Assembly (NCBI RefSeq): GCF_056712565.1
Contig: NZ_CM160072.1
DNA length: 64,000 nucleotides
Direction: 5' to 3' (one strand)
The position numbers and the translations under genes are program-made. Each line of letters begins with the position of its first letter. The first letter of the stretch is position 1. The notes under the pieces are model-generated. The model was not told where the DNA came from. It made no database searches and saw nothing but the letters and a program-made list of their open reading frames with translations. Of the stretch, positions 9,248 through 60,001 are shown in pieces.

Positions 9248-10441
9248 GTGTTTCAAAAAGTTGACGCCTACGCTGGCGACCCGATTCTTACGCTTATGGA
9301 GCGTTTTAAAGAAGACCCTCGCAGCGACAAAGTGAATTTAAGTATCGGTCTGTACTACAACGAAGACGGAATTATTCCACAACTGAAAGCCGTAGCGGAT
9401 GCGGAAGCGCGCCTGAATGCGCAGCCTCATGGTGCTTCGCTTTATTTACCGATGGAAGGGCTTAACAGCTATCGCCATGCCATTGCGCCGCTGCTGTTTG
9501 GTGCGGACCATCCGGTACTGCAACAACAGCGCGTAGCAACCATTCAAACCCTTGGCGGCTCAGGGGCATTGAAAGTGGGTGCAGATTTCCTGAAACGCTA
9601 CTTCCCGGAATCAGGCGTCTGGGTCAGCGATCCTACCTGGGAAAACCACGTAGCAATATTCGCCGGGGCTGGATTCGAAGTAAGTACTTACCCCTGGTAT
9701 GACGAAGCGACTAACGGCGTGCGCTTTAATGACCTGTTGGCGACGCTGAAAACATTACCTGCCCGCAGTATTGTGTTGCTGCATCCATGTTGCCACAACC
9801 CAACGGGTGCCGATCTCACTAATGACCAGTGGGATTCCGTGATTGAAATTCTCAAAGCCCGCGAGCTTATTCCATTCCTCGATATTGCCTATCAAGGATT
9901 TGGTGCCGGTATGGAAGAGGATGCCTACGCCATTCGCGCCATTGCCAGCGCTGGATTACCCGCTCTGGTGAGCAATTCGTTCTCGAAAATTTTCTCCCTT
10001 TACGGCGAGCGCGTCGGCGGACTTTCTGTTCTGTGTGAAGATGCCGAAGCCGCAGGCCGCGTACTGGGGCAATTGAAAGCAACCGTTCGCCGCAACTACT
10101 CCAGCCCGCCGAATTTTGGTGCGCAGGTGGTGGCTGCGGTGCTGAATGACGAGGCATTGAAAGCCAGCTGGCTGGCGGAAGTAGAAGAGATGCGTACTCG
10201 CATTCTGGCAATGCGTCAGGAACTGGTGAAGGTATTGAGCACAGAGATGCCAGAGCGCAATTTCGATTATCTGCTTAATCAGCGCGGCATGTTCAGTTAT
10301 ACCGGTTTAAGAACCGCTCAGGTTGACCGACTACGTGAAGAATTTGGTGTCTATCTCATCGCCAGCGGTCGCATGTGTGTCGCCGGGCTTAACGCGCAAA
10401 ATGTGCATCGCGTGGCAAAGGCGTTTGCTGCGGTGATGTGA
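9248..10441 (+). CDS. tyrB: aromatic amino acid aminotransferase TyrB
   Basis: 397 aa from GTG 9248 ([14 protein letters not shown]...), matching the K-12 length; PLP-lysine context [16 protein letters not shown]. Confidence 0.9.
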
Positions 10442-10449
10442 TTTTAATC

Positions 10450-10473
10450 AACAGGCGGATCTCTCCGCCTGTT
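10450..10473 (+). terminator. stem-loop after tyrB (10-bp stem, 4-nt loop, no clear U-tract)
   Basis: AACAGGCGGA-TCTC-TCCGCCTGTT read directly 9 nt after the tyrB stop. Confidence 0.4.
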
Positions 10474-10571
10474 CCTGACTCCAGCCATCCCCTACTATTC
10501 TGTCCCTTTTTTCGCCCACTTTTACATCATCTCTTTTCTATAAGTTTTTGAAAATTAGTGTTTTTAACTGT

Positions 10572-10587
10572 TGGTACGGATTGTGCA
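10572..10587 (+). promoter_or_regulatory. candidate sigma-54 (-24/-12) promoter for the 2-oxoglutarate dehydrogenase operon
   Basis: TGGTACGGATTGTGCA: GG and GC separated by 10 nt, two mismatches to TGGCACG-N4-TTGC; 36 nt upstream of the E1 ATG; an NtrC-family activator gene is in the same island. Confidence 0.55.
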
Positions 10588-10622
10588 GTAATGCGGCTGT
10601 CTATGACCATCAGGAGAAAAAC

Positions 10623-13367
10623 ATGGAGAACATGACCTCGCCCGGCACGCTGCTTAGTGGAGATAACGCGACCTGGCTTGAAGAGTACTACCAGACCTGG
10701 TTGCGTACGCCGGAACAACTCCCGGAAGACTGGCGGCGTTTTTTTCTTTCACCTGAACTGACTGTCCAAAGCGTATCCGGTGATAACAACGTCAGCGGTG
10801 CGACGTTAAAAAAACAGGCTGCGGTAATACAACTGATCAATGCCTGGCGCACGCAGGGGCATCTGCGCGCAAAGCTTGATCCACTTGGTTTGAATCCCCC
10901 AGCTGACGTTCCCTCCCTCCAGCCTGGTTTTTGGGGATTAAGCGAAGAAGACTTGTTGCAGGAGTTTAGCGTCACCTTTGGCGCACACACCACGCAAATG
11001 CCACTTAAGCAACTGCTTAACCTGCTGGAGCAAGCCTGGGCCGGTAGCCAGGCTTATGAACTTGCTCATCTGGAAAATCGTGAAGAAATCAACTGGTTGT
11101 TATCACGGATTGAGAGCAGCAATGCGCCACAAGCTGATGCCCAAACCTGCATTGCCCGTTTTGAAAAACTGATGGCGGCAGAGACGTTAGAGCGTTATCT
11201 GCATACCCGTTATGTTGGGCAGAAACGGTTTTCTCTGGAAGGGGGCGAAAGTGCAATCCCGGCGCTCGATACGCTGACAAAACGCCTGCGTGCGCAAGGT
11301 GTGGAGGAAATGGTCATTGGCATGGCGCACCGGGGAAGACTTAATGTTCTGGTTAATCTGTTGAATAAAGACCCGGCACAGCTTTTTGCTGAGTTTGAAG
11401 GCAAGCAGACGATCGGCAGTGGTTCAGGCGATGTGAAATACCACATGGGGTATTCCAGCAATCTGGAAACACCTGCCGGTTCGCTGCATGTGGCGCTGGC
11501 GTATAACCCCTCACATCTGGAGATCGTGAATCCGGTGGTGCTGGGCCAGGTGCGAGCCAGGCAGGAACGCCGTGGTGAGGATGGTCAGGCAAAAGTGGTG
11601 GGCGTACTTATTCATGGGGATTCCGCGTTGGGCGGCCTCGGCGTCAACCAAACCACGTTTAACTTATCGCAGACTCAGGGCTACGGCACTGGCGGTACGC
11701 TACATCTGGTGATTAACAATCAGATTGGCTTCACCACTTCCCGCTTGCAGGATATGCGTTCTTCACGGTACTGCACCGATATTGCCAAAATGGTAGCGGC
11801 CCCAATTATCCACGTTAATGGCGATGACGTTGACGCTGTTTGCCAGGTAATGGAACTGGCGTGCGAATGGCGAGACACCTTCCGGCGCGACATCATCATC
11901 GATATTTGCTGCTTCCGTAAGCACGGACACAACGAAAGCGATGAGCCACGTCTTACCCAGCCACAAATGTATCAGGCAGTGGATGCTCACCCTGGTACGC
12001 TCGCCCGTTATGGTGAATCTCTTGCCCGCCGCGGCCTGTTAACTCAGGCGCAACAAGATGAGATGACGGCACGCTATCGCGACTGGCTGGATAGCTGCCA
12101 GAAACGTGAACCGCAGCCTCTCAAACCTGCAATTCACTCTTTTAGCGCTAACTGGTATGGGTTGACCAACCCTCACTGGAGCGCCCCGGTATCTACGGCA
12201 TTGCCTCGGCAAAAGCTGGCAGCGTATGGTGAAATCATTTCTACACTGCCACCCGATGTGGTCGCACATCCTACCATTAAACGGCAACTGGCGTTACGCC
12301 AGGATATGGCCGCAGGTACTCAGCCAATAGACTGGGGAATGGCTGAAATGCTGGCCTATGCATCGCTTGTGGATGCGGGTGTTGGTGTGCGTCTTTCTGG
12401 TGAAGACTCAGGGCGTGGCACGTTCAGTCATCGCCATGCAGTGGTACATCATCAAACTGAAGCCCGTCGTTATCTGCCGTTACAGCATATCCGCGCTGGT
12501 CAGGCATCTTTCGATGTTTATGATTCGGTGCTTAATGAAGAAGCGCTCTTAGCCTTTGAATATGGCTATTCAACGTCTGCGCCTCAGCAACTGGTTATTT
12601 GGGAAGCGCAGTTTGGTGACTTTGCCAACGGCGCTCAGGTTGCTATTGACCAGTTTATCTCGTCTGGCGAAACCAAGTGGGATCGCTATAGCGGTTTAAC
12701 CATTCTTCTGCCGCATGGCTATGACGGACAAGGGCCGGAGCACTCTTCTGCGCGTCCTGAGCGCTGGCTGCAACTGTGCGCAGAAAACAACATGCAGGTG
12801 GTGATGCCCAGTGAGTCAGCACAAATGTTCCATTTGCTGCGCGGTCAGGCATTACGCCCAATGCGCAAACCGTTAGTGATAATGATGAGTAAGCGTTTAC
12901 TTCGGTTTAAAGGCGCTATGAGCGAGCTTTCTGAATTCACTGATGGCGCTTATAAACCGGTAGTCACCGATCCGCAATTGCATCAGTCCCAGAAAGTTAA
13001 GCGCGTTATTTTGTGTAGCGGCCAGGTCTATTACGACGTACTGGAAGCCCGTAAGCAGCGTGAGTGTGAAGATGAGGTAGCGATTGTTCGCCTGGAGCAA
13101 CTCTACCCGTTCCCGGTCGCAGAACTGAATGATGTTCTGGCGAGTTGGCCGAACTGCTGCGAATGGATTTGGTTGCAGGAAGAGCCAGAAAACCAGGGCG
13201 CGTGGCGGCAGATTCGTCATGAGCTGGCGGCACTGAAAATTAACACTCCTTACTGGCAGTATGCAGGCCGCCCGGCAGTGGCAGCTCCGGCGACAGGGTA
13301 TGGGCGTGTACATAAACAACAAATCGACGAATTTCTTGCTGCTGCGTTTGCAGATATTCAGCCATGA
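10623..13367 (+). CDS. 2-oxoglutarate dehydrogenase E1 component paralog (SucA-like)
   Basis: ORF-track ORF 10548-13367 (TTG) trimmed to ATG 10623 with AGGAGA SD; ThDP region HGDSALGGLGVNQTTFNLSQTQGYGTGGTLHLVINNQIGFTTS parallels SucA. Confidence 0.9.
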   Translation: MENMTSPGTLLSGDNATWLEEYYQTWLRTPEQLPEDWRRFFLSPELTVQSVSGDNNVSGATLKKQAAVIQLINAWRTQGHLRAKLDPLGLNPPADVPSLQPGFWGLSEEDLLQEFSVTFGAHTTQMPLKQLLNLLEQAWAGSQAYELAHLENREEINWLLSRIESSNAPQADAQTCIARFEKLMAAETLERYLHTRYVGQKRFSLEGGESAIPALDTLTKRLRAQGVEEMVIGMAHRGRLNVLVNLLNKDPAQLFAEFEGKQTIGSGSGDVKYHMGYSSNLETPAGSLHVALAYNPSHLEIVNPVVLGQVRARQERRGEDGQAKVVGVLIHGDSALGGLGVNQTTFNLSQTQGYGTGGTLHLVINNQIGFTTSRLQDMRSSRYCTDIAKMVAAPIIHVNGDDVDAVCQVMELACEWRDTFRRDIIIDICCFRKHGHNESDEPRLTQPQMYQAVDAHPGTLARYGESLARRGLLTQAQQDEMTARYRDWLDSCQKREPQPLKPAIHSFSANWYGLTNPHWSAPVSTALPRQKLAAYGEIISTLPPDVVAHPTIKRQLALRQDMAAGTQPIDWGMAEMLAYASLVDAGVGVRLSGEDSGRGTFSHRHAVVHHQTEARRYLPLQHIRAGQASFDVYDSVLNEEALLAFEYGYSTSAPQQLVIWEAQFGDFANGAQVAIDQFISSGETKWDRYSGLTILLPHGYDGQGPEHSSARPERWLQLCAENNMQVVMPSESAQMFHLLRGQALRPMRKPLVIMMSKRLLRFKGAMSELSEFTDGAYKPVVTDPQLHQSQKVKRVILCSGQVYYDVLEARKQRECEDEVAIVRLEQLYPFPVAELNDVLASWPNCCEWIWLQEEPENQGAWRQIRHELAALKINTPYWQYAGRPAVAAPATGYGRVHKQQIDEFLAAAFADIQP

Positions 13368-13399
13368 AAGGCGCACAAAAATAATAAGGAGAACATTTT

Positions 13400-14554
13400 A
13401 TGATCGAAATTACTGTCCCTGTATTACCGGAATCTGTCACGGAAGGCACGCTGACAACCTGGTGTAAACAAGAAGGCGAGCACGTAAAACGCGATGATGT
13501 GATTGCCGAGCTGGAAACCGATAAAGTCATTCTGGAAATACCGGCCCCGCACGATGGCGTGTTAAGCAATATTATCGTCAGCGAAGGTAGCACGGTCACG
13601 TCCGCGCAACTGTTGGCGCATCTTAAGCCGCAAGCTGTCATAGAAGAAACCGTCACACCAGTCACCGAAACCCTGGCGATGCCTTCCGCACGGCTGGAGG
13701 CACAGCGTAGTGGTGTTGAACTTGCTGACGTTGCGGGGAGCGGGAGAAATGGACGTATCCTGAAAGAGGATGTACAGCGCGTTACTCCTGCACCAGTCAT
13801 TCAGCCTGAACGGGTGGCGGAGATCGCGCCAGCTAAACCCTTGACACCGGGTGCTCGTCAGGAACGTCGTGAGCCGATGTCGCGCTTACGTCAGCGAATT
13901 GCTGAGCGTCTGCTGGCTTCCCAACAAAATAACGCCATTCTTACCACATTCAACGAAGTAAACATGCAGAGCGTGATGGATTTACGCACCCGCTGGAAAG
14001 ATCGTTTTGCCGAGAAGCACGGCGTGAAGCTGGGCTTTATGTCCTTCTTTGTTAAGGCCGTTACCCGGGCGCTGGAGCGCTTCCCTGTAGTGAATGCCAG
14101 CGTTGATGGCAACGAGATTATCTGGCGTGATTATTGCGATATCGGCATTGCAGTGAGCAGCAACCGCGGCCTGGTAGTGCCTGTGTTACGCAATGCGCAA
14201 TCACTCTCTTTGGTGGAAATTGAACGGCAAATTGCCGAATACGCCACACAGGCACGCAATGGCAAATTGCCGCTGGAGGCGTTACAGGGCGGCACGTTCT
14301 CTATCACCAACGGCGGTACTTTTGGTTCGATGATGTCAACGCCAATCATTAACCCGCCGCAGTCGGCCATTCTTGGGATGCATGCCATCACGCCGCGCCC
14401 GGTCGCAGAAAACGGCCAGGTTGTTATTCGTCCCATGATGTACCTTGCTCTCAGCTATGACCATCGCATTATCGATGGTCAGGAAGCCGTGCAGACATTG
14501 GTGGCAATACGTGAGCTACTGGAATCACCGGAACAACTGTTGCTGGATCTTTAA
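13400..14554 (+). CDS. dihydrolipoyllysine-residue succinyltransferase E2 paralog (SucB-like)
   Basis: 384 aa; lipoyl-lysine motif [14 protein letters not shown]; catalytic [11 protein letters not shown]; AAGGAGA SD. Confidence 0.9.
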
Positions 14555-14565
14555 GGAGGGCGCCG

Positions 14566-15984
14566 ATGAGTACAATTTTTGATGTGGCAGTTATGGGGGG
14601 TGGGCCAGGTGGTTACGTAGCGGCACTGCGGGCTGCGCAGAATGGGCTTTCCGTAGTATGTATTGATGATGGTGTTAATGCACAGGGCGAACCTTCGCCG
14701 GGCGGTACGTGTCTCAATGTCGGCTGTATTCCGTCAAAATCGTTGCTGCAATCTTCCGAGCTGTACGCGCAAGTACAGCATGAGGCAAGCATTCATGGCG
14801 TTAACGTTGAAGGCGTATCTTTCAATGCTGCCGCGATGATTCAACGTAAAGATGCCATAGTAAGCCGCCTGACAATGGGCATCAGCTTGCTGTTTAAGAA
14901 AAATAAAGTGAAGCACTTGTGCGGCCTCGCAACGTTAGAACGTGCTCAGGATGAGATTTGGCAATTACGCGTAAACGATCAACACATTCACGCCCGTAAT
15001 GTAGTGATTGCAACAGGTTCTCAGCCGCGTCAGCTGCCTGGCGTTACCATTGATAATCAACAGATCCTCGACAATCGTGGCGCCCTGGCATTGAGCGAAG
15101 TGCCGCCGCGTCTCGGTGTGATCGGCGCTGGCGTGATTGGCCTTGAACTGGGGTCTGTGTGGAATCGGGTCGGTTCAGATGTCACGCTGCTGGAGATGGC
15201 GCCAACGTTCTTGCCTGCACTGGAAGCTCGCCTGTCGAACGAAGTCCGTAAAGCAATGATTGCCAGTGGGATGAAAATGCAACTGGCAGTAGAGATTGAG
15301 GCTATTGAACAACGGGATGACGGTGTGCATGTGCGCTGGCGGCAGGGTGAGAAGCGAGAAGAAAGCCGCTTCGATAAATTAATTCTTGCCATTGGACGTG
15401 TACCGCGACTTTCTGGTGTCGATCTCGTGCAACTCGGTCTTGAAGCCGATAACCGTGGCGGTATTGCCGTCGATAACTTATGCCGTACCGGGAAAGCCGG
15501 GCTGTGGGCAATTGGTGATGTCGTGCGAGGGCCGATGCTGGCGCATAAAGCGATGGCTGAAGGTGTGGTGGTTGCGGATCAAATTGCCGGACTGGCGGTA
15601 GAGCCGATTAATTTTGCGCTGATCCCTTCGGTGATTTACACCCAACCGGAAGTTGCGTGGGTAGGGGAAAACGAGGCCTCACTGAAAGCCGCTGGCAGAG
15701 TCTTTAACAAAGGAAATTCTCTGTTTGCCGGTAACGGTCGCGCCTTAGCATTAGGCCAGGAAGGTGGGCGTTGCACGTTATACAGCGATAAACACACTGA
15801 CCGCGTACTTGGCGGAGCGATTGTTGGCCCGCAGGCATCGGAGCTGATCAATGAAATTGCGCTGGCGATGACTTTTAGCGCCTCTGGCGAGGATATTGCC
15901 TGTGCGATCCATGCGCATCCGACCTTAAGCGAAGTCATCCACGAAGCAGCAATGGCCTTGAATAATAAAGCATTACACGGATAA
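14566..15984 (+). CDS. dihydrolipoyl dehydrogenase E3 paralog (Lpd-like)
   Basis: 472 aa; FAD fold GGGPGGYVAALRAAQ; redox-active disulfide CLNVGCIPSK. Confidence 0.9.
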   Translation: MSTIFDVAVMGGGPGGYVAALRAAQNGLSVVCIDDGVNAQGEPSPGGTCLNVGCIPSKSLLQSSELYAQVQHEASIHGVNVEGVSFNAAAMIQRKDAIVSRLTMGISLLFKKNKVKHLCGLATLERAQDEIWQLRVNDQHIHARNVVIATGSQPRQLPGVTIDNQQILDNRGALALSEVPPRLGVIGAGVIGLELGSVWNRVGSDVTLLEMAPTFLPALEARLSNEVRKAMIASGMKMQLAVEIEAIEQRDDGVHVRWRQGEKREESRFDKLILAIGRVPRLSGVDLVQLGLEADNRGGIAVDNLCRTGKAGLWAIGDVVRGPMLAHKAMAEGVVVADQIAGLAVEPINFALIPSVIYTQPEVAWVGENEASLKAAGRVFNKGNSLFAGNGRALALGQEGGRCTLYSDKHTDRVLGGAIVGPQASELINEIALAMTFSASGEDIACAIHAHPTLSEVIHEAAMALNNKALHG

Positions 15985-16005
15985 CACATACCACTGAGGG
16001 AATAT

Positions 16006-17175
16006 ATGAATTTACATGAGTATCAGGCCAAATCGTTACTGGCTGGCATGGGGATGCCGTGTCCAAAAGAGATAGCCATCCAACAGATTTCGCAACTGGC
16101 AGATGCCTGGCAACATATTGCTTGCCCGAGTAAAGGCGCGGTACTTAAAGCGCAGGTACATGCTGGTGGGCGCGGTAAAGCTGGCGGCGTAAAAGTGCTT
16201 AAGCAGCTGCCGGAAGCACAGGCTTTTGTACAGCAAATGTTGGGATCGCAACTGGTGACTTATCAGACCGGGCCAGAAGGGCAGTATGTCAGCAGTATTT
16301 TGCTGTGCGAAAACATCTATCCGGTACGCCAGGAACTCTATTTTGGCATGGTGGTGGATCGTGAAAGCCAGCGGGTCACGTTTATTGTCAGCCCGGAAGG
16401 TGGTGTGGAAATTGAAAAAGTCGCCCATGAGACACCGGAGAAAATCAGCAGTGTCAGCATTGATCCACTGACAGGCGTGCAGCCTTGCCATATCCGCGAA
16501 ATGTTTGCTGTTCTGCAACTGGAACACGGGCTATTTGCTACCTTTAGTCGCCTGGTTAATCAGGCGTGGAAAGCCTTTAACGAACTGGATTTCGCCCTGC
16601 TGGAAATTAACCCTCTGGTGTTGCGGGAAACGGGCGAATTTATGTGTGCAGACGCGAAAGTATCGCTGGATGATAACGCGCTGTATCGTCACCCGGAACT
16701 CCAGGTGCTACGTGATGAAACCCAGGAAGATCCACGCGAAAGCCAGGCAGCGAAGCTTGATCTTAATTATGTCTCGCTGGACGGAAATATCGGCTGCATG
16801 GTCAATGGTGCAGGGCTGGCTATGGCAACCATGGACATCATCAAGCTATACGGTGAACAACCCGCAAACTTCCTGGATGTTGGCGGTGGCGCAACCCAGG
16901 AGCGCGTCAGTGAAGCCTTTCGGCTGATTGTTTCCGACAGCAAAGTGAAAGCCATTCTGGTTAATATTTTTGGTGGGATTGTCCGTTGCGACATGATCGC
17001 CAGAGCCATTATTCATGCTCTGAATGAGGCCCGTATCACCCTGCCTGTCGTGGTGCGTCTCTCCGGTAATAACGCTGCCGAAGGGCAGCGGTTACTGGCA
17101 GAAAGTGGCCTGACGGTGGAAGCCGTCAATTCTCTGGATGATGCCGCTAAACGCATCATTGCGTTACTGAATTAA
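16006..17175 (+). CDS. succinyl-CoA synthetase beta subunit paralog (SucC-like)
   Basis: 389 aa; N-terminus MNLHEYQAKSLLAGMGMP typical of the ATP-grasp SucC family. Confidence 0.9.
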   Translation: MNLHEYQAKSLLAGMGMPCPKEIAIQQISQLADAWQHIACPSKGAVLKAQVHAGGRGKAGGVKVLKQLPEAQAFVQQMLGSQLVTYQTGPEGQYVSSILLCENIYPVRQELYFGMVVDRESQRVTFIVSPEGGVEIEKVAHETPEKISSVSIDPLTGVQPCHIREMFAVLQLEHGLFATFSRLVNQAWKAFNELDFALLEINPLVLRETGEFMCADAKVSLDDNALYRHPELQVLRDETQEDPRESQAAKLDLNYVSLDGNIGCMVNGAGLAMATMDIIKLYGEQPANFLDVGGGATQERVSEAFRLIVSDSKVKAILVNIFGGIVRCDMIARAIIHALNEARITLPVVVRLSGNNAAEGQRLLAESGLTVEAVNSLDDAAKRIIALLN

Positions 17176-17187
17176 CAGGAGGTTAAG

Positions 17188-18060
17188 ATGAGCGTTTTGA
17201 TCAACAAACACACGCGGGTACTGGTGCAGGGCATTACCGGCAAAAACGGCACATTTCATACAGAGCAGGCTATTGCGTATGGCACGCAGATTGTGGGTGG
17301 AGTGACGCCAGGTAAGGGCGGGCAACGGCATCTGGATCGCCCGGTTTTTGATTCAATGAAAGAAGCGATGCGACAAACTGAGGCTGATGCCAGCGTGATT
17401 TATGTGCCTGCACCGTTTGTGCTGGATTCTGTTGTTGAGGCTATTGAAGCTGGCGTCAAATTGGTTGTGGTGATCACTGAAGGTGTACCGACACTGGATA
17501 TGGTGAAAGTTCGTCGGCTGCTTGACTGCCACCCGGATGTGCGGCTGATTGGGCCAAACTGCCCAGGAGTTATCACGCCGGGCGAGTGCAAAATCGGGAT
17601 TATGCCTGGTGAAATCCACCGCCCAGGGCGTATTGGGATTGTTTCCCGCTCCGGTACATTAACCTACGAAGCTGTAGCGCAAACCACGGCGCTGGGACTT
17701 GGGCAATCCACCTGTATTGGTATTGGCGGCGATCCGGTTCCGGGGACTAACTTTATTGATGCGCTGCGTTTATTCGAAAATGATCCGCAAACAGACGCGG
17801 TAATTATGATCGGTGAAATTGGTGGTAATGCGGAAGAACGGGCTGCGGAATTTATTCGTCATGAAATGAATAAACCGGTCGTAGGTTATATTGCCGGTGT
17901 TACTGCACCAAAAGGAAAACGCATGGGGCACGCCGGAGCCATTATTTCTGGCGGTAGCGGCAGTGCAGAGGATAAATTCCGTGCGTTCGATAAAGCAGGC
18001 ATGGCATGGACAAGAAACCCGGCGTTGCTTGGCGAAACGTTATGGAATGTTATTAAGTAA
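17188..18060 (+). CDS. succinyl-CoA synthetase alpha subunit paralog (SucD-like)
   Basis: 290 aa; CoA-binding N-terminus [14 protein letters not shown]; phosphohistidine region [17 protein letters not shown]. Confidence 0.9.
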
Positions 18061-18102: not shown

Positions 18103-18215
18103 ATCTGTGTGGTAAGGGAATCATCTTTTAATAACTGTGCGGAAAACCGCGCATAAAATAAAAAGGATAAATAGCTAACTCATTAAATAACAAAGCGTTA
18201 TTAAAAAATTAAAGA

Positions 18216-18231
18216 TGGCATAGCTCCTGCA
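18216..18231 (+). promoter_or_regulatory. candidate sigma-54 (-24/-12) promoter for the transporter / Ldh_2 operon
   Basis: TGGCATAGCTCCTGCA: GG-N10-GC, close to consensus; about 40 nt upstream of ATG 18272. Confidence 0.6.
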
Positions 18232-18271
18232 ATAGCCAGGCAGGTTTTTTATTTTTCACAATGAGGTGAAT

Positions 18272-19782: not shown

Positions 19783-20856
19783 ATGTCATTACAAATTGCT
19801 GTTGAAAAAGTGCGTTGGTTAGCTGCCGGGCTGCTGGAACTTAATGGCTGTGATGCCGATATCGCTCAGGATGTGGCGGAACATATGATTGAAGCGGAAC
19901 GTTATGGCTTTGCCAGCCACGGCGTCACGCTGCTACCGAAATATCTGGAAAATATCGCTCGTGGCGATGTAACCGCGAATGCCCGCCCGGAATGCTTAAC
20001 AAGTGAAGGTAATTTACAACGTTTTCATGCCCACAATGGCTTTGGTCAACACGCCGGAAAAGTGGCGGTAAATGCTGCCATCGAACAAGCAAAACACCGC
20101 GGTTTTTGCCTGTTAACGTTGTGCCATGCGCATCATTTAGGGCGTATGGGGCATTACGGGCAAATGGTTGCTGATCAAGGCCTGGCGATGCTGGCCATGA
20201 GTAACGTCACCGGGCGTCCGGCACTGGTCGCCCCGTGGGGCGGTGCGGAACCGCGTATGACCACTAACCCTTTCTGCTTTGCCTGGCCGTTCAGTGATGG
20301 GCGTCCGCCGATTCTGGTTGATTTTGCCACCAGTAGCATGGCGCTAAATAAAGCACGGGTAATGTCGTCCACCGGGAAGCAGGCCGCGCCGGGACAATTG
20401 ATCGATGCACAGGGGAATCCAAGCAATGATCCTGGGGTGTTATTCAGCAATCCTCCAGGGGCGTTACTGCCATTTGGTGAGCATAAAGGATTTGGCCTGG
20501 CACTGATGATTGAAATGATGGCGGGGATCTTATCTGGTGGTGACACGATCGCCGAAGATCATCAGACGGATGGATCTGCGCATAATCATCTTTTTGCGTT
20601 GATTATCGATCCTGATCAATTCACCGATCTGGCAGGGGAGAAAGGGCAGTTCTTTGCGGATTATCTGTTAGCTACGCAGCCTCAACCTGGCGGCAATCCG
20701 GTGATTTACCCCGGTATGCCAGAAGCTGCCAACCGGGAACGCAATGCGAAGATGATTACGATCCCGGTATCATTCTGGTCCTGGATAGTTGAACATTACG
20801 CCCGCAAAGGTATCGATTTGGGGTTACATCCTCAGGAATCAGCATTAGCTGGATGA
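19783..20856 (+). CDS. Ldh_2-family (malate/L-lactate dehydrogenase 2 type) 2-hydroxyacid/2-oxoacid oxidoreductase
   Basis: ORF-track ORF 19645-20856 trimmed to ATG 19783 (GAGGAAA SD; the upstream extension would overlap the transporter gene); 357 aa. Confidence 0.7.
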   Translation: MSLQIAVEKVRWLAAGLLELNGCDADIAQDVAEHMIEAERYGFASHGVTLLPKYLENIARGDVTANARPECLTSEGNLQRFHAHNGFGQHAGKVAVNAAIEQAKHRGFCLLTLCHAHHLGRMGHYGQMVADQGLAMLAMSNVTGRPALVAPWGGAEPRMTTNPFCFAWPFSDGRPPILVDFATSSMALNKARVMSSTGKQAAPGQLIDAQGNPSNDPGVLFSNPPGALLPFGEHKGFGLALMIEMMAGILSGGDTIAEDHQTDGSAHNHLFALIIDPDQFTDLAGEKGQFFADYLLATQPQPGGNPVIYPGMPEAANRERNAKMITIPVSFWSWIVEHYARKGIDLGLHPQESALAG

Positions 20857-22203
20857 TTCTGGTCGATAAACTTGCGGTTGAATCTGATGTTTGTTGAGTT
20901 TGTCATATAAAGTCTTGCGCGGCAGCTGTAATAGCCGCGCTGTCAAACTGACTTGGCCTTCCGTTTGTCGCAGCATATCTTCGATTAACTTTTTCTCGAA
21001 AGCATCAATGCAGGCGGTAAGGCCACTCTCTTCTTGCTGAGTCATTGGCACTGGCTGGTGGTGGGTCAGTAAACCGAGAACAAAACGCTCTGCATTGTGT
21101 TTAAGTTCACGTACATTGCCAGGCCAACTTTGTGATTGCAACCAGGCCAGTAACATGGGAGAAATATCAGGCAGAGGACGATTATATTTTTGTGCCGCCT
21201 GACTGGCGAACCAGTAAAACAGTTCAGGGATATCTTCTCGTCGCTGGCGTAGAGGTGGAATATTCAAGCTAACCACATTCAGACGATAATAGAGATCGAG
21301 ACGAAACAGATGTTCTTCGCTGCGACGCAGTAAATCTTCCTTGGTCGCTGCAATAACACGGCAATTCACCGGAATTAATTGATTGGCACCTAATCGTTCA
21401 ATGGTTCTTTCCTGCAATACACGTAGCAGTTTTACCTGCATTCCTGATGGCATTCCCTCTATTTCATCGAGAAATAACGTACCACCATTTGCATGTTCAA
21501 TTTTTCCAATACGCTTTTTAACCGCACCGGTAAATGCGCCCGCCTCATGACCAAATATTTCGCTTTCAAACAACGTTTCTGGTAAGCCTGCACAGTTTAA
21601 GGCAACAAACTGCCCCTGACGGCGGGTACTCCAGTGATGCAGCATTCTGGCGACGACTTCTTTACCACAACCTGTTTCACCATAAATAAGGACATCGGCA
21701 CCGGTATCTGCGACATTAAGGATCATTTTACGCAGTTGTTGCATCTGCGGACTACGACCAATCAGCACCGGGCCATTTTCCTGTTGCAGATTCGCCAGTA
21801 ATTGCTGATTTTCTAAAACCAATCGCCGTTTTTCTACCGCTCTGGCAATAATACTCAATAATTTATCTGAGCTACTTGGTTTCTCAATGAAATCGAATGC
21901 ACCATTACGCATGGCATCCACCGCCATTTCCACGTCACCGTGTCCGGTAATTAAAATAACCGGAATTTTGCTATCCATTTCGTTGATGTAACTGAGGAGC
22001 TCTAGTCCTGATATTCCAGGTAACCTGACATCGGTCAGTATAATAATGTTGGCTTGACTTTGAATAAGGGGAATACTGTGTTCTGCATCGCAACAGGAAA
22101 TAACACGATAACCAGCCAGCGTGAGCGTTTGTTCACAGGCAAAACGTACATCGTCACTATCCTCAATATAAACTATAGTAATTTCACTGGATTTATTATT
22201 CAT
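20845..22203 (-). CDS. kguR: sigma-54-dependent response regulator (NtrC family); matches KguR of the alpha-ketoglutarate utilization island
   Basis: 452 aa; receiver domain (IILTDVRLPG); AAA+ Walker A GETGCGKE; GAFTGA motif; C-terminal HTH. Gene name recalled from the UPEC literature, not verified here. Confidence 0.85.
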   Translation of the reverse strand: MNNKSSEITIVYIEDSDDVRFACEQTLTLAGYRVISCCDAEHSIPLIQSQANIIILTDVRLPGISGLELLSYINEMDSKIPVILITGHGDVEMAVDAMRNGAFDFIEKPSSSDKLLSIIARAVEKRRLVLENQQLLANLQQENGPVLIGRSPQMQQLRKMILNVADTGADVLIYGETGCGKEVVARMLHHWSTRRQGQFVALNCAGLPETLFESEIFGHEAGAFTGAVKKRIGKIEHANGGTLFLDEIEGMPSGMQVKLLRVLQERTIERLGANQLIPVNCRVIAATKEDLLRRSEEHLFRLDLYYRLNVVSLNIPPLRQRREDIPELFYWFASQAAQKYNRPLPDISPMLLAWLQSQSWPGNVRELKHNAERFVLGLLTHHQPVPMTQQEESGLTACIDAFEKKLIEDMLRQTEGQVSLTARLLQLPRKTLYDKLNKHQIQPQVYRPESSS

Positions 22204-24016
22204 GTTCTTCTCCCCATTCAGGCCAGGTTAATGTCATTACTGCGCCGCCTTCAGGATGATTACTGGCGTGGAGTGCGCCGTTCGAATTTCGGACAATTTC
22301 GCTGACTATTGCCAGTCCCAACCCCATTCCTCTACGTTTAGTGGTAAAAAATGGTTCAAATATGCGATCGACAACTTCAGGTGCAAAACCGCCACCGCTG
22401 TCTTTAATGGTAATAATAACTTTGTTATTTGCCTGGCGAATGGCGATATCCAGTCGTTTGTAAGAGCTACCTTCCATAGAATCTAAGGCGTTGCTAATTA
22501 AATTACTGAATATCTGTTCAAGACCGAGCTCATCGCAATTGACAAATAACGGCATGGATGGGGCTTTTATTCGTCGCTCAATGTTATTTTTCTCCATGCT
22601 GTGATTAAGTAACGCCACGGCGCTATACATCACTTTGATGACATCGGCAGAACCTTTAGGTACGCGATGGCGCGAGGCAAATGCTTTAAGTTCGGAAATG
22701 AGCTGCGTCATCCGCTCAATCACTGAAATAATGTGTTTCAGATTCTGTTCAACCTGCGGATACATCTCTTTTTTTAGCATAGTACGCGCGTTATCAGTAA
22801 GTGCGTGAATGGCGGCTAACGGTTGATTTTGTTCATGGGCAATTTCGGTTGCCATCTGTCCAAGCGCCGCCAGTTTGCTGGACTCTGCCAGTTCACTACG
22901 CGTAATTTGTAATACTTGTTCAGCCTGACTGCGCTCTTTTATCTCCTGTATTAATTTTTGATTGATCAATTCCAGGGCAGATGTACGCTCTTTAACCTGT
23001 TTTTCTAATGTTTCATTCGCCAGTGTTAATAATTGTTGTGCATGAGATCGCATTCTCCAGTATTTAATAAATAACAAAAACAGCAGGTAAATAATTAGTG
23101 TAATGACTAACGAAATAGCCCATGACCAGTACAGGTTATCTAAGGGGACCATAATTGTCATTTTCCAGTTAAATTCTGGAATGGCTATTTGTTGCGTATA
23201 ATATTGCGGGAATAAACAGAGTTGTTCTTTTTTATCTTTCAGGAAAGTAAAATTGCTCACGGTATAACAGGGATAATAATCCGCCGGTAAAAGATTGTCG
23301 AGACTATATTGACGGGTAGATTGTAGTTTTTGTTTTGCCTGAACAGGTAACGGTTGCAGTGTTCGCATTCGCCATGGCGATTTTGAACTTAAAAATATAA
23401 TCCCATGTTCATCATTCACGATAATATTTTCAGGACCTTCGGCCCATGCTTTTTCAATTTCATTAAGACTTATTTTTACTACTACAACACCGACAATTTT
23501 TCCTTTATCTTTTATACTTGTAGAGAGGAAGAATCCCGGTGTATTTGTAGTGCTACCAATACCGTAAAAGCGTCCATTTAAGCCAGACATGGCGTGTTTA
23601 TAATAGGGGCGATAGCTATAATTTTGCCCTACATAGCTGCCGGGGTCCTGCCAGTTGCTAGAAGCGATGGCCTTACCTTGGGTATCCAGAATAAATATTG
23701 CTGCGGTTTTGAGTTGAGTATTGAAATGTGCAATTCGTTGATTGAGTTCGCTGGACGTCATATCGTCAGGCGTAATTACCGCCTGACGGATGATATGGTC
23801 TGTTGAGAGCATATAGGGTAAAACATAAAATTGCTCGATGGTGGAATATAATGTGGACTTATACATTTCAAGCCGCATTTTATCGGTACCGGACAAGGTA
23901 TTAAAACGCAAGTGCAAAAAAGCGATTGAAACCGCGAGCATGATAAGAAAAAGTGAAATGCTTGTAATGTGAAATCGCCATTTGTTCTTAAATATATAAT
24001 TCCACGATATTTTCAT
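22196..24016 (-). CDS. kguS: sensor histidine kinase (DctB-like, periplasmic sensing domain); matches KguS
   Basis: 606 aa; two TM segments flanking a roughly 270-aa periplasmic domain; H-box ATEIAHEQNQPLAAI; ATPase G-box DSGGGF; stop overlaps the kguR start by 8 nt. Confidence 0.85.
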   Translation of the reverse strand: MKISWNYIFKNKWRFHITSISLFLIMLAVSIAFLHLRFNTLSGTDKMRLEMYKSTLYSTIEQFYVLPYMLSTDHIIRQAVITPDDMTSSELNQRIAHFNTQLKTAAIFILDTQGKAIASSNWQDPGSYVGQNYSYRPYYKHAMSGLNGRFYGIGSTTNTPGFFLSTSIKDKGKIVGVVVVKISLNEIEKAWAEGPENIIVNDEHGIIFLSSKSPWRMRTLQPLPVQAKQKLQSTRQYSLDNLLPADYYPCYTVSNFTFLKDKKEQLCLFPQYYTQQIAIPEFNWKMTIMVPLDNLYWSWAISLVITLIIYLLFLLFIKYWRMRSHAQQLLTLANETLEKQVKERTSALELINQKLIQEIKERSQAEQVLQITRSELAESSKLAALGQMATEIAHEQNQPLAAIHALTDNARTMLKKEMYPQVEQNLKHIISVIERMTQLISELKAFASRHRVPKGSADVIKVMYSAVALLNHSMEKNNIERRIKAPSMPLFVNCDELGLEQIFSNLISNALDSMEGSSYKRLDIAIRQANNKVIITIKDSGGGFAPEVVDRIFEPFFTTKRRGMGLGLAIVSEIVRNSNGALHASNHPEGGAVMTLTWPEWGEEHE

Positions 24017-24196
24017 TCATCATCCATTGAATGCATTTATATTTATCATCAGTATATTCCCTGAACAATGTTTGCGAGAACCAAAAGAGTGCCATTGTGT
24101 GAATGTGTAAGCAGAATAACCGTGGCAATGTGTGGTTTATCGCACAGGTATTCCAAATGTGATCATGCTCTTTTTATGTGACAAATCCGCAGATAA

Positions 24197-55744: not shown

Positions 55745-57313
55745 TTATTTGGTTACCTGATCAAACCAGACCATATCGGCATTCAACCCTTGTTGATACC
55801 CCTGCACATTATCACGCATGACAATTTGCGTTTTGCCTTGATCAATAAAGACATACGGGGAACTACGTTGTAGTTCTTGTTGCATTTTCTTATACAAATC
55901 AAGACGTTTAGTGCTATCAGGTTCAGCGATGGCCGCCAGCGTTTCTTTGTTCAGTTCCGGGATTTTCCAGCCGTTTAACCCGGCAACGGTGCTGGATTTG
56001 CCATCGTTATAGGCGAAAGAGCTGGCGTTGGAATGTGCGTCAAAATAATCAGGCAACCACATACGAATGGCCCCCTGATGCTGGTGGGCGCGAACGCGAG
56101 AGTAGACCTGACTCCCTGCGGCTGGCAGCAAATCAACTTTTACACCGCCCTGAGCAAAGCTGGCCTGAATTGACTGCGCGATGGTAATAAATGGCGGTTT
56201 ATTTTCGACATCAAGCGTGAAGTGCGGGTCTTTGATTCCGGCTTTAGCGAGGATCTCTTTTGCTTTGGCTGGATTAAAGGTAAACGGTGTTTCTTCCAGT
56301 GCTCCAGGAAAGCCCACGGGCAGGAAACTTTGATGGGTAAAATATTGTCCTTTTAAGAGATTTTTGGTGATGCCGTCGTAATCGACCAACCAGCGAGCGG
56401 CCTCCCAGAACGCAGGATTACTCATCAGCGGGTTATCCTTGTTACCGGTATTGAAGGCCAGGTAGTTCTGTTCGGCGGAGGCAATGCTCATCACTTTTAC
56501 GCCAGGTTTACCCTGTAATGCATCGATTTGATCGGCTCCCAGATCACGAGCCATATCAGCATCACCTTGTTGGATCAGCAGGCGACGCGTTGCCGGATCG
56601 GGAACATTTTTGATGATGACGTTTTTCAGTTTCGGGGCGCCGGTTGGTGAGCTGGCGTTGGCTTCCATCACGATGGCCTGATGCGGTTGGTAAGTACGCA
56701 TTTTAAACGCGCCGCTGCCAGCGGAATGCATCTTCAGCCATTCATTACCAAAGTCGTTATTTTTGGCGTTTGGCGCAACCAGCTTCTCGTCAACAATTGA
56801 GGCGATTGGTGTGGAGAGAATATTCAGTGCCAGCGCCGGGCTGACGTCGGCACTCCATTGCACCTGGACGGTATGGTCATCGATTTTCTTCAACTGGCTG
56901 GCGATATTTTCCGGCTGCCATCCCAGCACATTGAGAATAAACGCACCGGATTTATTCAGTGTGACAGCCCGGACATAAGAGTAAATCACATCTTCCGGGC
57001 GTACCGGATTACCAGAGGCAAATTTCGCATCGCTTTTCAGTTTTATGGTTAGCGTTTTGGCTGCGGGGTCAGCCTGCCAACTTTCCGCCAGAATCGGAGT
57101 GATTTTCGTCGGATCATTACGGTCCGGTTGTACTACGCGTTGATACAGACTTGGTACAGTCTGAATACTTGAGAGTTCATTAGCTTCTGCCGGGTCCAGA
57201 CTCACAATATCATCCAGTCCCTGGGCTACAACCAACGTATTAGGCGGTGTAGCGGCAACGGTTGTGGCGGAAATTGTGCTTAAAACCAGTAAAGGTAATA
57301 GTTTTTTAATCAT
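55745..57313 (-). CDS. ABC transporter periplasmic substrate-binding protein, family 5 (NikA/DppA/OppA-like)
   Basis: 522 aa; signal peptide MIKKLLPLLVLSTISATTVAA; size typical of cluster C SBPs. Confidence 0.85.
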   Translation of the reverse strand: MIKKLLPLLVLSTISATTVAATPPNTLVVAQGLDDIVSLDPAEANELSSIQTVPSLYQRVVQPDRNDPTKITPILAESWQADPAAKTLTIKLKSDAKFASGNPVRPEDVIYSYVRAVTLNKSGAFILNVLGWQPENIASQLKKIDDHTVQVQWSADVSPALALNILSTPIASIVDEKLVAPNAKNNDFGNEWLKMHSAGSGAFKMRTYQPHQAIVMEANASSPTGAPKLKNVIIKNVPDPATRRLLIQQGDADMARDLGADQIDALQGKPGVKVMSIASAEQNYLAFNTGNKDNPLMSNPAFWEAARWLVDYDGITKNLLKGQYFTHQSFLPVGFPGALEETPFTFNPAKAKEILAKAGIKDPHFTLDVENKPPFITIAQSIQASFAQGGVKVDLLPAAGSQVYSRVRAHQHQGAIRMWLPDYFDAHSNASSFAYNDGKSSTVAGLNGWKIPELNKETLAAIAEPDSTKRLDLYKKMQQELQRSSPYVFIDQGKTQIVMRDNVQGYQQGLNADMVWFDQVTK

Positions 57314-57601
57314 ATGCTTCCCAATCCCTGAAATTACTTTGAGGTTATTAATATGCTATCAGACGGGGTTTCGCTGCATTAATCGCGCCAGAATATCCCG
57401 TTAATAGAACGAGTTAAACGGTCGATGATTTCTCACCTTACCGAAATTTTGTTTATCAAATGTAAAGTATTATTACGTTAGGCCGCGATGAGAATTGAGT
57501 AAAGATAATTCTCATTTGCAATCGTGACTGGAATAGAAGAACAACCGAGAAGACGTCGCTAATAACCAGGATGGGCTGGTTTGACTGCGCAGGTATGTAT
57601 A

Positions 57602-59886: not shown

Positions 59887-59902
59887 TGCATCTTTTATGC
59901 CA
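59887..59902 (-). promoter_or_regulatory. sigma-54 promoter of fdhF (FhlA-dependent)
   Basis: Minus strand reads TGGCATAAAAGATGCA (GG-N10-GC), about 50 nt upstream of the fdhF ATG. Confidence 0.8.
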
Positions 59903-60001
59903 CATTTTATTTGGGGTCATTCCCTGATATTACGGGCACTATTTATTCAAAACTCTGACGAAAAACAGGCTGTCGTCAGTTTTGACGTGACGAAACGAAA
60001 T

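Follow-up and report, generated by a model that had tools for sequence, protein, structure and literature searches.

Genomic context of the E1 operon

The window analyzed here, a stretch of 64,000 nucleotides of contig NZ_CM160072.1 (assembly GCF_056712565.1), holds the published kgu island (c5032–c5041) between tyrB and aphA, with the gene order matched to the published one (PMC3694859). The island encodes E1, E2 and E3 proteins, SucC-like and SucD-like proteins, a DASS transporter and an Ldh_2 oxidoreductase, and the genes for the KguR and KguS regulators lie on the opposite strand. The operon c5032–c5037 is a transcribed unit on the plus strand (10623–18060) whose structure was determined by RT-PCR (PMC3694859). 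It is composed of the genes encoding E1 (10623–13367), E2 (13400–14554), E3 (14566–15984), SucC-like (16006–17175) and SucD-like (17188–18060) proteins, all on the plus strand, which are the E1, E2 and E3 components of alpha-ketoglutarate dehydrogenase plus succinyl-CoA synthetase. The ATG of E1 at position 10623 follows the PGAP annotation of the identical Nissle 1917 sequence.

The kguR gene (c5040) is located at 20845–22203 on the minus strand and encodes the cognate sigma-54 enhancer-binding response regulator of the island. Its product contains Response_reg, Sigma54_activat (1e-67), AAA_lid_14 and HTH_8 domains, with a Walker A motif at residue 175 and a GAFTGA loop at residue 222, and the NtrC-family enhancer-binding protein that an earlier note on this DNA had placed in the island is thereby accounted for. 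In CFT073, the c5040 product is also counted among the activator ATPases with a GAFTGA motif, and activators of this type act on the sigma-54 holoenzyme (PMC9017345). The neighboring kguS gene (c5041; 22196–24016, minus strand) encodes a histidine sensor kinase with a dCache domain.

Several E. coli of B2 type, Nissle 1917 and ATCC 11775 among them, match 10300–10800 at 100% identity, and the end of tyrB, the leader and the start of E1 are identical between CFT073 and the window over 270 nt. The leader is found in 1044 of 5426 complete E. coli genomes at 95.6–100% identity. In the alignment with K-12, homology ends directly after the tyrB stop codon at 10441, and therefore the whole 181-nt leader between tyrB and E1 is island DNA. 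The RefSeq annotation contains no feature within this leader, an Rfam scan of 10200–10800 returned no RNA family match, and a repeat search of the region identified a hairpin only.

This hairpin, AACAGGCGGA-TCTC-TCCGCCTGTT (10450–10473, plus strand), follows the tyrB stop codon and has a perfect 10-bp stem without a U-tract. Its folding energy is -17.7 kcal/mol (z = -3.7), and a terminator scan of 10300–10700 neither called the hairpin nor found any terminator. K-12 exhibits a different hairpin at the same place, the one in the window being island DNA, and in E. albertii the stem is kept and the loop is changed. The hairpin is probably the tyrB terminator or an insulator of the operon from tyrB transcription. 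The earlier note had described the promoter candidate upstream of E1 as preceded only by this hairpin, a description that does not fit the leader, where approximately 97 nt of further DNA separates the hairpin from the motif.

A probable -24/-12 element upstream of E1

The sequence TGGTACGGATTGTGCA lies at 10572–10587 on the plus strand, with its GG at 10573–10574, its GC at 10585–10586 and 10 nt between the two. The earlier note had reported a GG-N10-GC motif at this place upstream of E1, and both its position and its spacing are borne out, with 35 nt between the motif and the E1 ATG (36 nt from A10587 to A10623) and the C at -12 located 37 nt before the ATG.

A crude search for the consensus TGGYACGNNNNTTGCW with up to two mismatches gave 21 matches in the window against 22.9 expected, with the TGGTACGGATTGTGCA site among only three matches that carry a single mismatch. 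Since this loose search performed no better than chance, a position weight matrix built from 135 ChIP-seq-defined sigma-54 sites of E. coli K-12 (PMC4591121, Tables 1 and 2) was used instead, a type of scan that had been suggested along with the motif. The 17-mer TTGGTACGGATTGTGCA scores 15.7–15.9 bits with this matrix, at the 76th percentile of the real sites, and ranks third or fourth among 127,968 window positions. The per-position probability of such a score is approximately 2e-6, corresponding to an expectation of 0.27 in the whole window and of 3e-4 on the sense strand of the 181-nt intergenic region. As positive controls, the matrix recovered the known fdhF promoter GTGGCATAAAAGATGCA (59887–59903, minus strand) and the proven c5038 promoter (18215–18231). 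With a matrix from the 42 intergenic-sense sites only, the score of the motif falls to 12.6 bits (rank 11, 5th percentile), which is due to its two less common bases, a T for C at -22 (present in 26 of the 135 real sites) and a G for T at -15 (5 of 135). Other high-scoring sigma-54 matches in the window lie inside genes, for example at 14122–14138.

Within the 300 nt upstream of E1 the next-best sigma-54 match scores 1.6 bits, and a scan of 10300–10700 for sigma-70-like promoters found none. The motif is intergenic and in the sense orientation, and the length of its predicted leader, approximately 25 nt, falls among those of confirmed promoters (PMC4591121, Table 1). The transcription start of the operon is predicted at approximately 10598 (10596–10600, plus strand), 12 nt after the C at -12 or 19 nt after the motif center, giving a 5' UTR of approximately 25 nt; this position is derived from the mapped c5038 start, and the Bonocora rule (PMC4591121) leads to an identical prediction. 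A Shine-Dalgarno sequence, AGGAGA, follows at 10612–10617 on the plus strand, with its AGGAG core 6 nt before the ATG, and is invariant in the alignment. The idea of a CT-rich insulator, in which a read-through transcript from tyrB hides the ribosome-binding site of E1, was also considered and dropped, as 10442–10650 does not fold unusually well (z = -1.1) and the short transcript lacks structure.

Taken as a whole, TGGTACGGATTGTGCA is with good confidence assigned as the sigma-54 (RpoN) -24/-12 element driving the island operon c5032–c5037, and RpoN dependence of the E1 operon promoter would be the expected mechanism. It is very probably an ordinary sigma-54 promoter, a previously unreported addition to the known regulon that is expected rather than surprising.

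Conservation of the predicted promoter among related modules

Eleven versions of the module were compared, comprising that of E. coli and ten others in at least five chromosomal contexts. The gene upstream of E1 is tyrB in E. albertii and in Klebsiella sp. 2680, and two SRA contigs (L094 and L095) have a tyrB-like end at this place. In Salmonella enterica the upstream gene is a divergent Plug-domain gene, in Pectobacterium zantedeschiae glnALG-yshB precedes E1, in Entomohabitans a phytase-like gene and in Gibbsiella an aldehyde dehydrogenase gene. In a Vibrio diazotrophicus-like contig, kguS lies upstream and is divergent from E1, and a third SRA contig (L093) completes the set. The lineages are only partly independent, as E. 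coli and E. albertii are close to each other, as are Entomohabitans and Gibbsiella. A search with the E. coli E1 protein returned only E. coli clusters at 99–100% identity, whereas the divergent Vibrio-like E1 as the query gave useful orthologues; a contig scan for orthologues found three and otherwise mostly the housekeeping SucA at approximately 48% identity. Identity of E1 to the E. coli protein falls to approximately 60% within the set, and most of the upstream regions are unalignable.

In all eleven lineages the best sigma-54 match in the 300 nt before E1 scores 12.5–17.4 bits and ranks between first and fifth in its locus. The C at -12 of this best site is located 37–51 nt before the E1 ATG in every one of them despite the differing upstream genes, and the next-best upstream match is usually below 3 bits. 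A TGGTAYGG variant is common to most of the enterobacterial copies. The core positions of the element are invariant in an alignment of the E. coli variants with E. albertii, Klebsiella sp. and Salmonella, and the 16-mer is unchanged in four sampled E. coli leader variants while the bases directly after it vary. A constant 16-mer followed by variable bases is the pattern that would be expected of a functional -24/-12 element.

Candidate KguR and IHF sites in the leader

The KguR operator was read in the register TGTGYG-N6-CRCRCA, which is common to the validated c5038 and kguS sites (the latter being TGTGCGATAAACCACACA, 24146–24129, minus strand) and is kept in five transporter orthologues. The N8 reading given in the papers is broken in the window, where CGCATA replaces CGCACA, whereas the N6 reading is intact. 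A KguR matrix was built from seven transporter and kguS sites only and scanned over the regions upstream of E1. Its top match upstream of E1 in the window is the proximal candidate TGTCCCTTTTTTCGCCCA (reverse complement TGGGCGAAAAAAGGGACA) at 10501–10518, centered at approximately -88, which scores 5.9–7.9 bits and is weak when taken alone. A distal candidate, TGTTCCTGACTCCAGCCA (10470–10487, centered at approximately -119), lies 31 bp upstream of the proximal one, shares 4 nt with the 3' end of the hairpin and reaches 2.0 bits by itself. Both candidates are located inside the 130 nt between the tyrB stop codon and the motif. The best window matches to TGTGYG-N6-CRCRCA have at least three mismatches, and the window candidates differ systematically from the transporter sites by a C for G at position 6 and by a T-rich center.

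The assignment of these sites as the enhancer is based on conservation and not on motif strength. The distance from the start of a KguR-like site to the promoter 17-mer downstream is 69–70 nt for the E. coli-type lineages and 108–110 nt for those of the Gibbsiella and Vibrio types, and a partner site is found 30–31 bp from the other KguR-like site in 11 of 11 lineages. Stronger KguR matches occur elsewhere, with 17.7 bits in the Vibrio-like contig, 15.5 bits in L094 and 14.4 bits in Entomohabitans. Over the first eight lineages, the best KguR scores add up to 64.4, whereas 1000 dinucleotide shuffles gave 17.7 ± 8.2 and never more than 47.1. For tandem pairs, the statistic reached 53.7 compared with -49.6 ± 16 in 1000 shuffles.

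The spacer from the proximal site to the promoter is 52 nt long with 77% A+T and contains an IHF-like site, TTTCAAAAACTTA (10541–10553, minus strand), that matches the IHF consensus WATCAANNNNTTR at 12 of 13 positions and is centered at approximately -51. In the window alone, a match of this quality carries a 16% chance expectation. A match with at most one mismatch is present in each of the eight lineage spacers between the upstream sites and the promoter, and the summed mismatches over these eight lineages amount to 5, whereas shuffles gave 15.3 ± 1.8 and, in 2000 of them, never fewer than 9. A DNA bend, probably assisted by IHF, is proposed at approximately -51.

These leader sites bear on a further claim of the earlier note, namely that activator-binding sites must overlap the 3' region of tyrB. 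The claim is not upheld, as the leader itself contains two conserved KguR-like sites 31 bp apart and an IHF-like site; the leader sites recur where the upstream gene is not tyrB, and the site proposed within tyrB is absent from E. albertii. The comparison of lineages points with moderate confidence to an enhancer placed in the leader and not in tyrB, with occupancy of the particular sites by KguR as a prediction.

Published experiments and alternative explanations

Deletion of kguS/kguR abolishes expression of a c5032-lacZ fusion in CFT073, and MBP-KguR shifts the -272 to +32 fragment of c5032, corresponding to window positions 10351–10654 (PMC3694859). In a kguR mutant, RNA-seq found c5032–c5037 to be down by approximately 8 log2 units and tyrB to be down by approximately 2.2-fold (PMC8716947). 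For the sister promoter c5038, a start was mapped by 5'-RACE, binding of RpoN was demonstrated and induction is lost in an rpoN mutant, whose growth on alpha-ketoglutarate is poor (PMC5318444). For c5032 itself, no -24/-12 element, start site, rpoN-mutant test or promoter mutation is described in the papers that were found.

The published predicted KguR site for the operon is TGTGTG-N13-CGCGCA, which lies inside the tyrB coding sequence (10374–10398, plus strand) and is centered at approximately -212 (PMC3694859, PMC8716947); a subsequent list gives it as a target in its own right, named "aromatic aminotransferase" (PMC8716947). If this were the enhancer, the sigma-54 promoter would be correct and the leader 18-mers would not be KguR sites, a combination that we regard as unlikely. 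The tyrB-internal site came from the group that performed the EMSA, the shifted fragment contains it, and it was relisted subsequently (PMC3694859, PMC8716947); the assay is unable to discriminate between the tyrB site and the leader, because the -272 to +32 probe spans both. The CGCGCA half-site is also confined to the island-associated tyrB allele (1044 genomes with the allele, 1044–1045 with the island), and in the N6 register the tyrB region reaches at most 4.1 bits, similar to the leader sites. Against this, the N13 spacing departs from the fixed N6 found in the orthologous sites as well as at the validated c5038 and kguS sites, and the left half of the site simply corresponds to the tyrB codons for Met, Cys and Val. 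In E. coli SA186 the right half is changed to CACGCA, and E. albertii lacks the site despite having the same tyrB-linked island and promoter. In other genera, the contexts without tyrB retain the tandem leader sites, and the tyrB site cannot exist there. The tyrB-internal site is therefore probably not the main enhancer.

Two other alternatives concern the promoter element. It is very improbable that the motif is a chance resemblance, in which case operon transcription would come from a sigma-70-type promoter that has escaped recognition or from tyrB read-through, and the effect of KguR would be indirect. The crude consensus search was no richer than shuffles, and read-through is conceivable in view of a post-tyrB hairpin that has no U-tract and was not called as a terminator; the decrease of tyrB in the kguR mutant is in line with it, but the loss of operon expression in the same mutant far exceeds that change (PMC8716947). 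The matrix probability of approximately 2e-6 per position, the conserved position of the site in 11 lineages with unrelated upstream genes and the lack of any sigma-70-like promoter in the scan of 10300–10700 all oppose a chance origin, as does the nature of KguR as a GAFTGA-type activator of the class acting on the sigma-54 holoenzyme (PMC9017345). Equally far from probable is that the sigma-54 holoenzyme binds the element but that the site is poised or inert and the productive operon promoter is elsewhere. For many of the sigma-54 sites detected by ChIP-seq in E. coli K-12, it is not known whether they drive transcription (PMC4591121), and the window has further high-scoring sites inside genes, such as that at 14122–14138. 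The E1 element, however, is intergenic and in the sense orientation with approximately 25 nt from the predicted start to the ATG, which is the geometry of the confirmed zraP, pspG, hycA and rtcB promoters (PMC4591121, Table 1). There is no second candidate in the 300 nt upstream, where the next-best match is that of 1.6 bits, and a cognate activator is encoded with conserved enhancer-like sites at the usual distance.

Proposed mechanism of activation

For a KguR-activated sigma-54 promoter at 10572–10587, the predicted order of the leader from 5' to 3' is the tyrB stop codon with the hairpin, two KguR sites three helical turns apart, an IHF-type bend, the -24/-12 element, the transcription start, the Shine-Dalgarno sequence and the ATG of E1. 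A closed complex of sigma-54 and RNA polymerase would sit on the TGGTACGGATTGTGCA element. KguS would sense alpha-ketoglutarate, and phosphorylated KguR would then bind the upstream enhancer and oligomerise there, with the degenerate pair of KguR-type 18-mers at 10470–10487 and 10501–10518 being most likely this enhancer. A DNA bend at approximately -51, probably assisted by IHF, would allow the GAFTGA loop of KguR to contact the polymerase, and the use of ATP by KguR would open the promoter for transcription from approximately 10598, about 25 nt before the ATG. Such remodelling of a closed sigma-54 complex by phosphorylated KguR would account for the all-or-none KguR dependence exhibited by the lacZ fusion and by RNA-seq.

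Comparison with known systems

The system is reminiscent of Rhizobium dctA, a sigma-54 promoter for dicarboxylate use that is controlled by DctB/DctD, with IHF-assisted looping in some species. According to Ledebur and Nixon in 1992, DctD reportedly binds two tandem sites of unequal affinity that are approximately three helical turns apart and approximately 100–140 bp upstream of dctA. The kgu and dctA systems share a dCache-type sensor kinase and an NtrC-family activator, and the candidate tandem sites of the kgu leader are reminiscent of the unequal DctD sites, but the two systems differ in the inducer, which is a C5 rather than a C4 dicarboxylate, and in the target, which is a dehydrogenase/synthetase operon rather than a transporter.

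The closest relative of the E1 promoter is the c5038 promoter (18106–18231, plus strand), which shares with it the activator KguR, the inducer and the anaerobic control (PMC3694859). Its KguR site TGTGCGGAAAACCGCGCA lies at 18136–18153 with a weaker site 30 nt upstream (18106–18123), and its -24/-12 element is TGGCATAGCTCCTGCA (18216–18231, plus strand). The published c5038 transcription start (PMC5318444) maps to window position 18242, 12 nt after the C of the GC. The two promoters have the same layout, with KguR-type 18-mers approximately 30 bp apart, an A+T-rich spacer, the -24/-12 element and a leader of 25–30 nt. The c5038 promoter features a near-consensus TGGCAT-N5-CTGCA and a strong KguR site, TGTGCG-N6-CGCGCA (PMC5318444, PMC8716947), whereas the E1 promoter reads TGGTAC-N5-GTGCA and has only degenerate KguR-like sites. 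Unlike c5032, c5038 has a mapped transcription start, an rpoN-mutant test and an RpoN EMSA. The region upstream of kguS was not used as a third reference promoter, its sole sigma-54-like site being poor (2.9 bits).

In Pseudomonas aeruginosa, MifS/MifR and RpoN control the alpha-ketoglutarate transporter PA5530 (cited in PMC5318444). MifS/MifR resembles the kgu system in being an alpha-ketoglutarate-responsive two-component system with a sigma-54 activator, but the target of MifR is a transporter only. The archetypal enterobacterial sigma-54 promoter, glnAp2 with NtrC (TTGGCACAGATTTCGCT; PMC4591121, Table 1), exhibits GG-N10-GC, upstream tandem activator sites and an ATP-dependent open complex, which are seen or predicted at the E1 promoter as well, and it differs from the E1 promoter in its activator and signal and in not needing IHF.

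Implications for the kgu island

Up to now, the dehydrogenase operon has counted among the direct targets of KguR with no promoter defined for it, and the operator proposed for it lies oddly inside a neighboring gene. The -24/-12 element and the likely enhancer provide the exact bases to mutate, and the entire pathway, not the transporter alone, is predicted from this assignment to be lost in rpoN mutants. For uropathogenic E. coli, this closes a minor gap in a metabolic circuit already known to be associated with virulence and leaves general concepts unchanged.

The published tyrB-internal KguR operator may well be a misassignment, with the real enhancer being the tandem degenerate sites and the IHF site of the island leader (10470–10553) and the island itself a self-contained regulatory cassette. 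This reading would be of use in correcting the assignment of the KguR operator. If it is true, the cassette would consist of an enhancer, a bend, a sigma-54 promoter, the operon, a sensor and an activator, and an island moving between genera would carry its own complete control region. Control would then be kept at any insertion site, in keeping with the at least five chromosomal contexts in which the module is found.

Sigma-54 matrix matches in the window

The matrix built from 135 ChIP-seq sites of E. coli K-12 (PMC4591121) recovers the known sigma-54 promoter of fdhF, GTGGCATAAAAGATGCA (59887–59903, minus strand), which served as a positive control. This promoter is site OS41 in PMC4591121 and lies 53 nt upstream of the fdhF ATG (59835). 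The top match of the entire window is CTGGCGCGATTAATGCA (57375–57391, minus strand, 18.3 bits), located in the intergenic region between fdhF and a gene encoding a 522-aa ABC-transporter substrate-binding protein (55745–57313). The match is in the sense orientation, with 63 nt separating C(-12) from the ATG of the substrate-binding protein gene, and is probably an unannotated sigma-54 promoter of a four-gene ABC transporter operon. Within the kgu island, a high-scoring sigma-54-like site, CTGGCGTGATTATTGCG (14122–14138, plus strand, 15.9 bits), is found in the sense orientation inside the E2 gene, similar to the intragenic sigma-54 sites reported for K-12.

The upstream region of the sensor kinase gene kguS contains a validated KguR site (24129–24146), and kguSR is autoregulated by KguR (PMC8716947). 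The sole sigma-54-like element in this region, ATGGCACTCTTTTGGTT (24079–24095, minus strand), scores poorly at 2.9 bits, features GT in place of GC at -12 and is positioned only ~35 nt downstream of the KguR site.

The KguR site of c5038

The KguR site upstream of the transporter gene c5038 reads ...CGCGCATA in this strain (18136–18155) versus ...CGCGCACA in CFT073 (4815816–4815835). The window strain thus lacks an intact copy of the N8 palindrome described in the literature but retains the site in the N6 register (TGTGCG-N6-CGCGCA). Another site of lower strength, TGTGTGGTAAGGGAATCA (18106–18123), is located 30 nt upstream of the first.

The 3′ end of tyrB

Near the 3′ end of tyrB, a 25-nt stretch (10388–10412) diverges from K-12 and encodes NAQNVH versus the NTANVQ of K-12; the final 29 nt of the gene, 3′ of this patch, are K-12-like again. 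The numbers of genomes with the patch allele (1044) and with the island (1044–1045) match, and there are no intermediates. The patch is similar to the end of tyrB in Klebsiella sp. 2680, whose island is likewise tyrB-linked, and it is probably a recombination scar left by the donor. The predicted KguR site within tyrB, TGTGTG-N13-CGCGCA (10374–10398), is listed in the genome-wide KguR motif search of PMC8716947 (Table 3) as a separate target, an "aromatic amino acid transaminase", with no mention that this sequence is the c5032 site proposed by the same group in 2013 (PMC3694859).

The kgu module in other genomes

One contig carrying the module (JABXHW010000047.1) bears the database label of a Flavobacteriia MAG. 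It has probably been mis-binned, since its kgu module is of gammaproteobacterial type and the encoded E1 matches a protein of Vibrio diazotrophicus at 100% identity. Here kguS and E1 are divergent, with one control region common to both genes.

The same ten-gene module occupies at least five chromosomal contexts in different genera. It follows tyrB in Klebsiella sp. 2680, glnALG-yshB in Pectobacterium zantedeschiae, a phytase-like gene in Entomohabitans and an aldehyde dehydrogenase gene in Gibbsiella; in Salmonella enterica its neighbour is a divergently oriented gene for a Plug-domain receptor. Such varied surroundings are consistent with the kgu module having been moved repeatedly by horizontal transfer as one unit.
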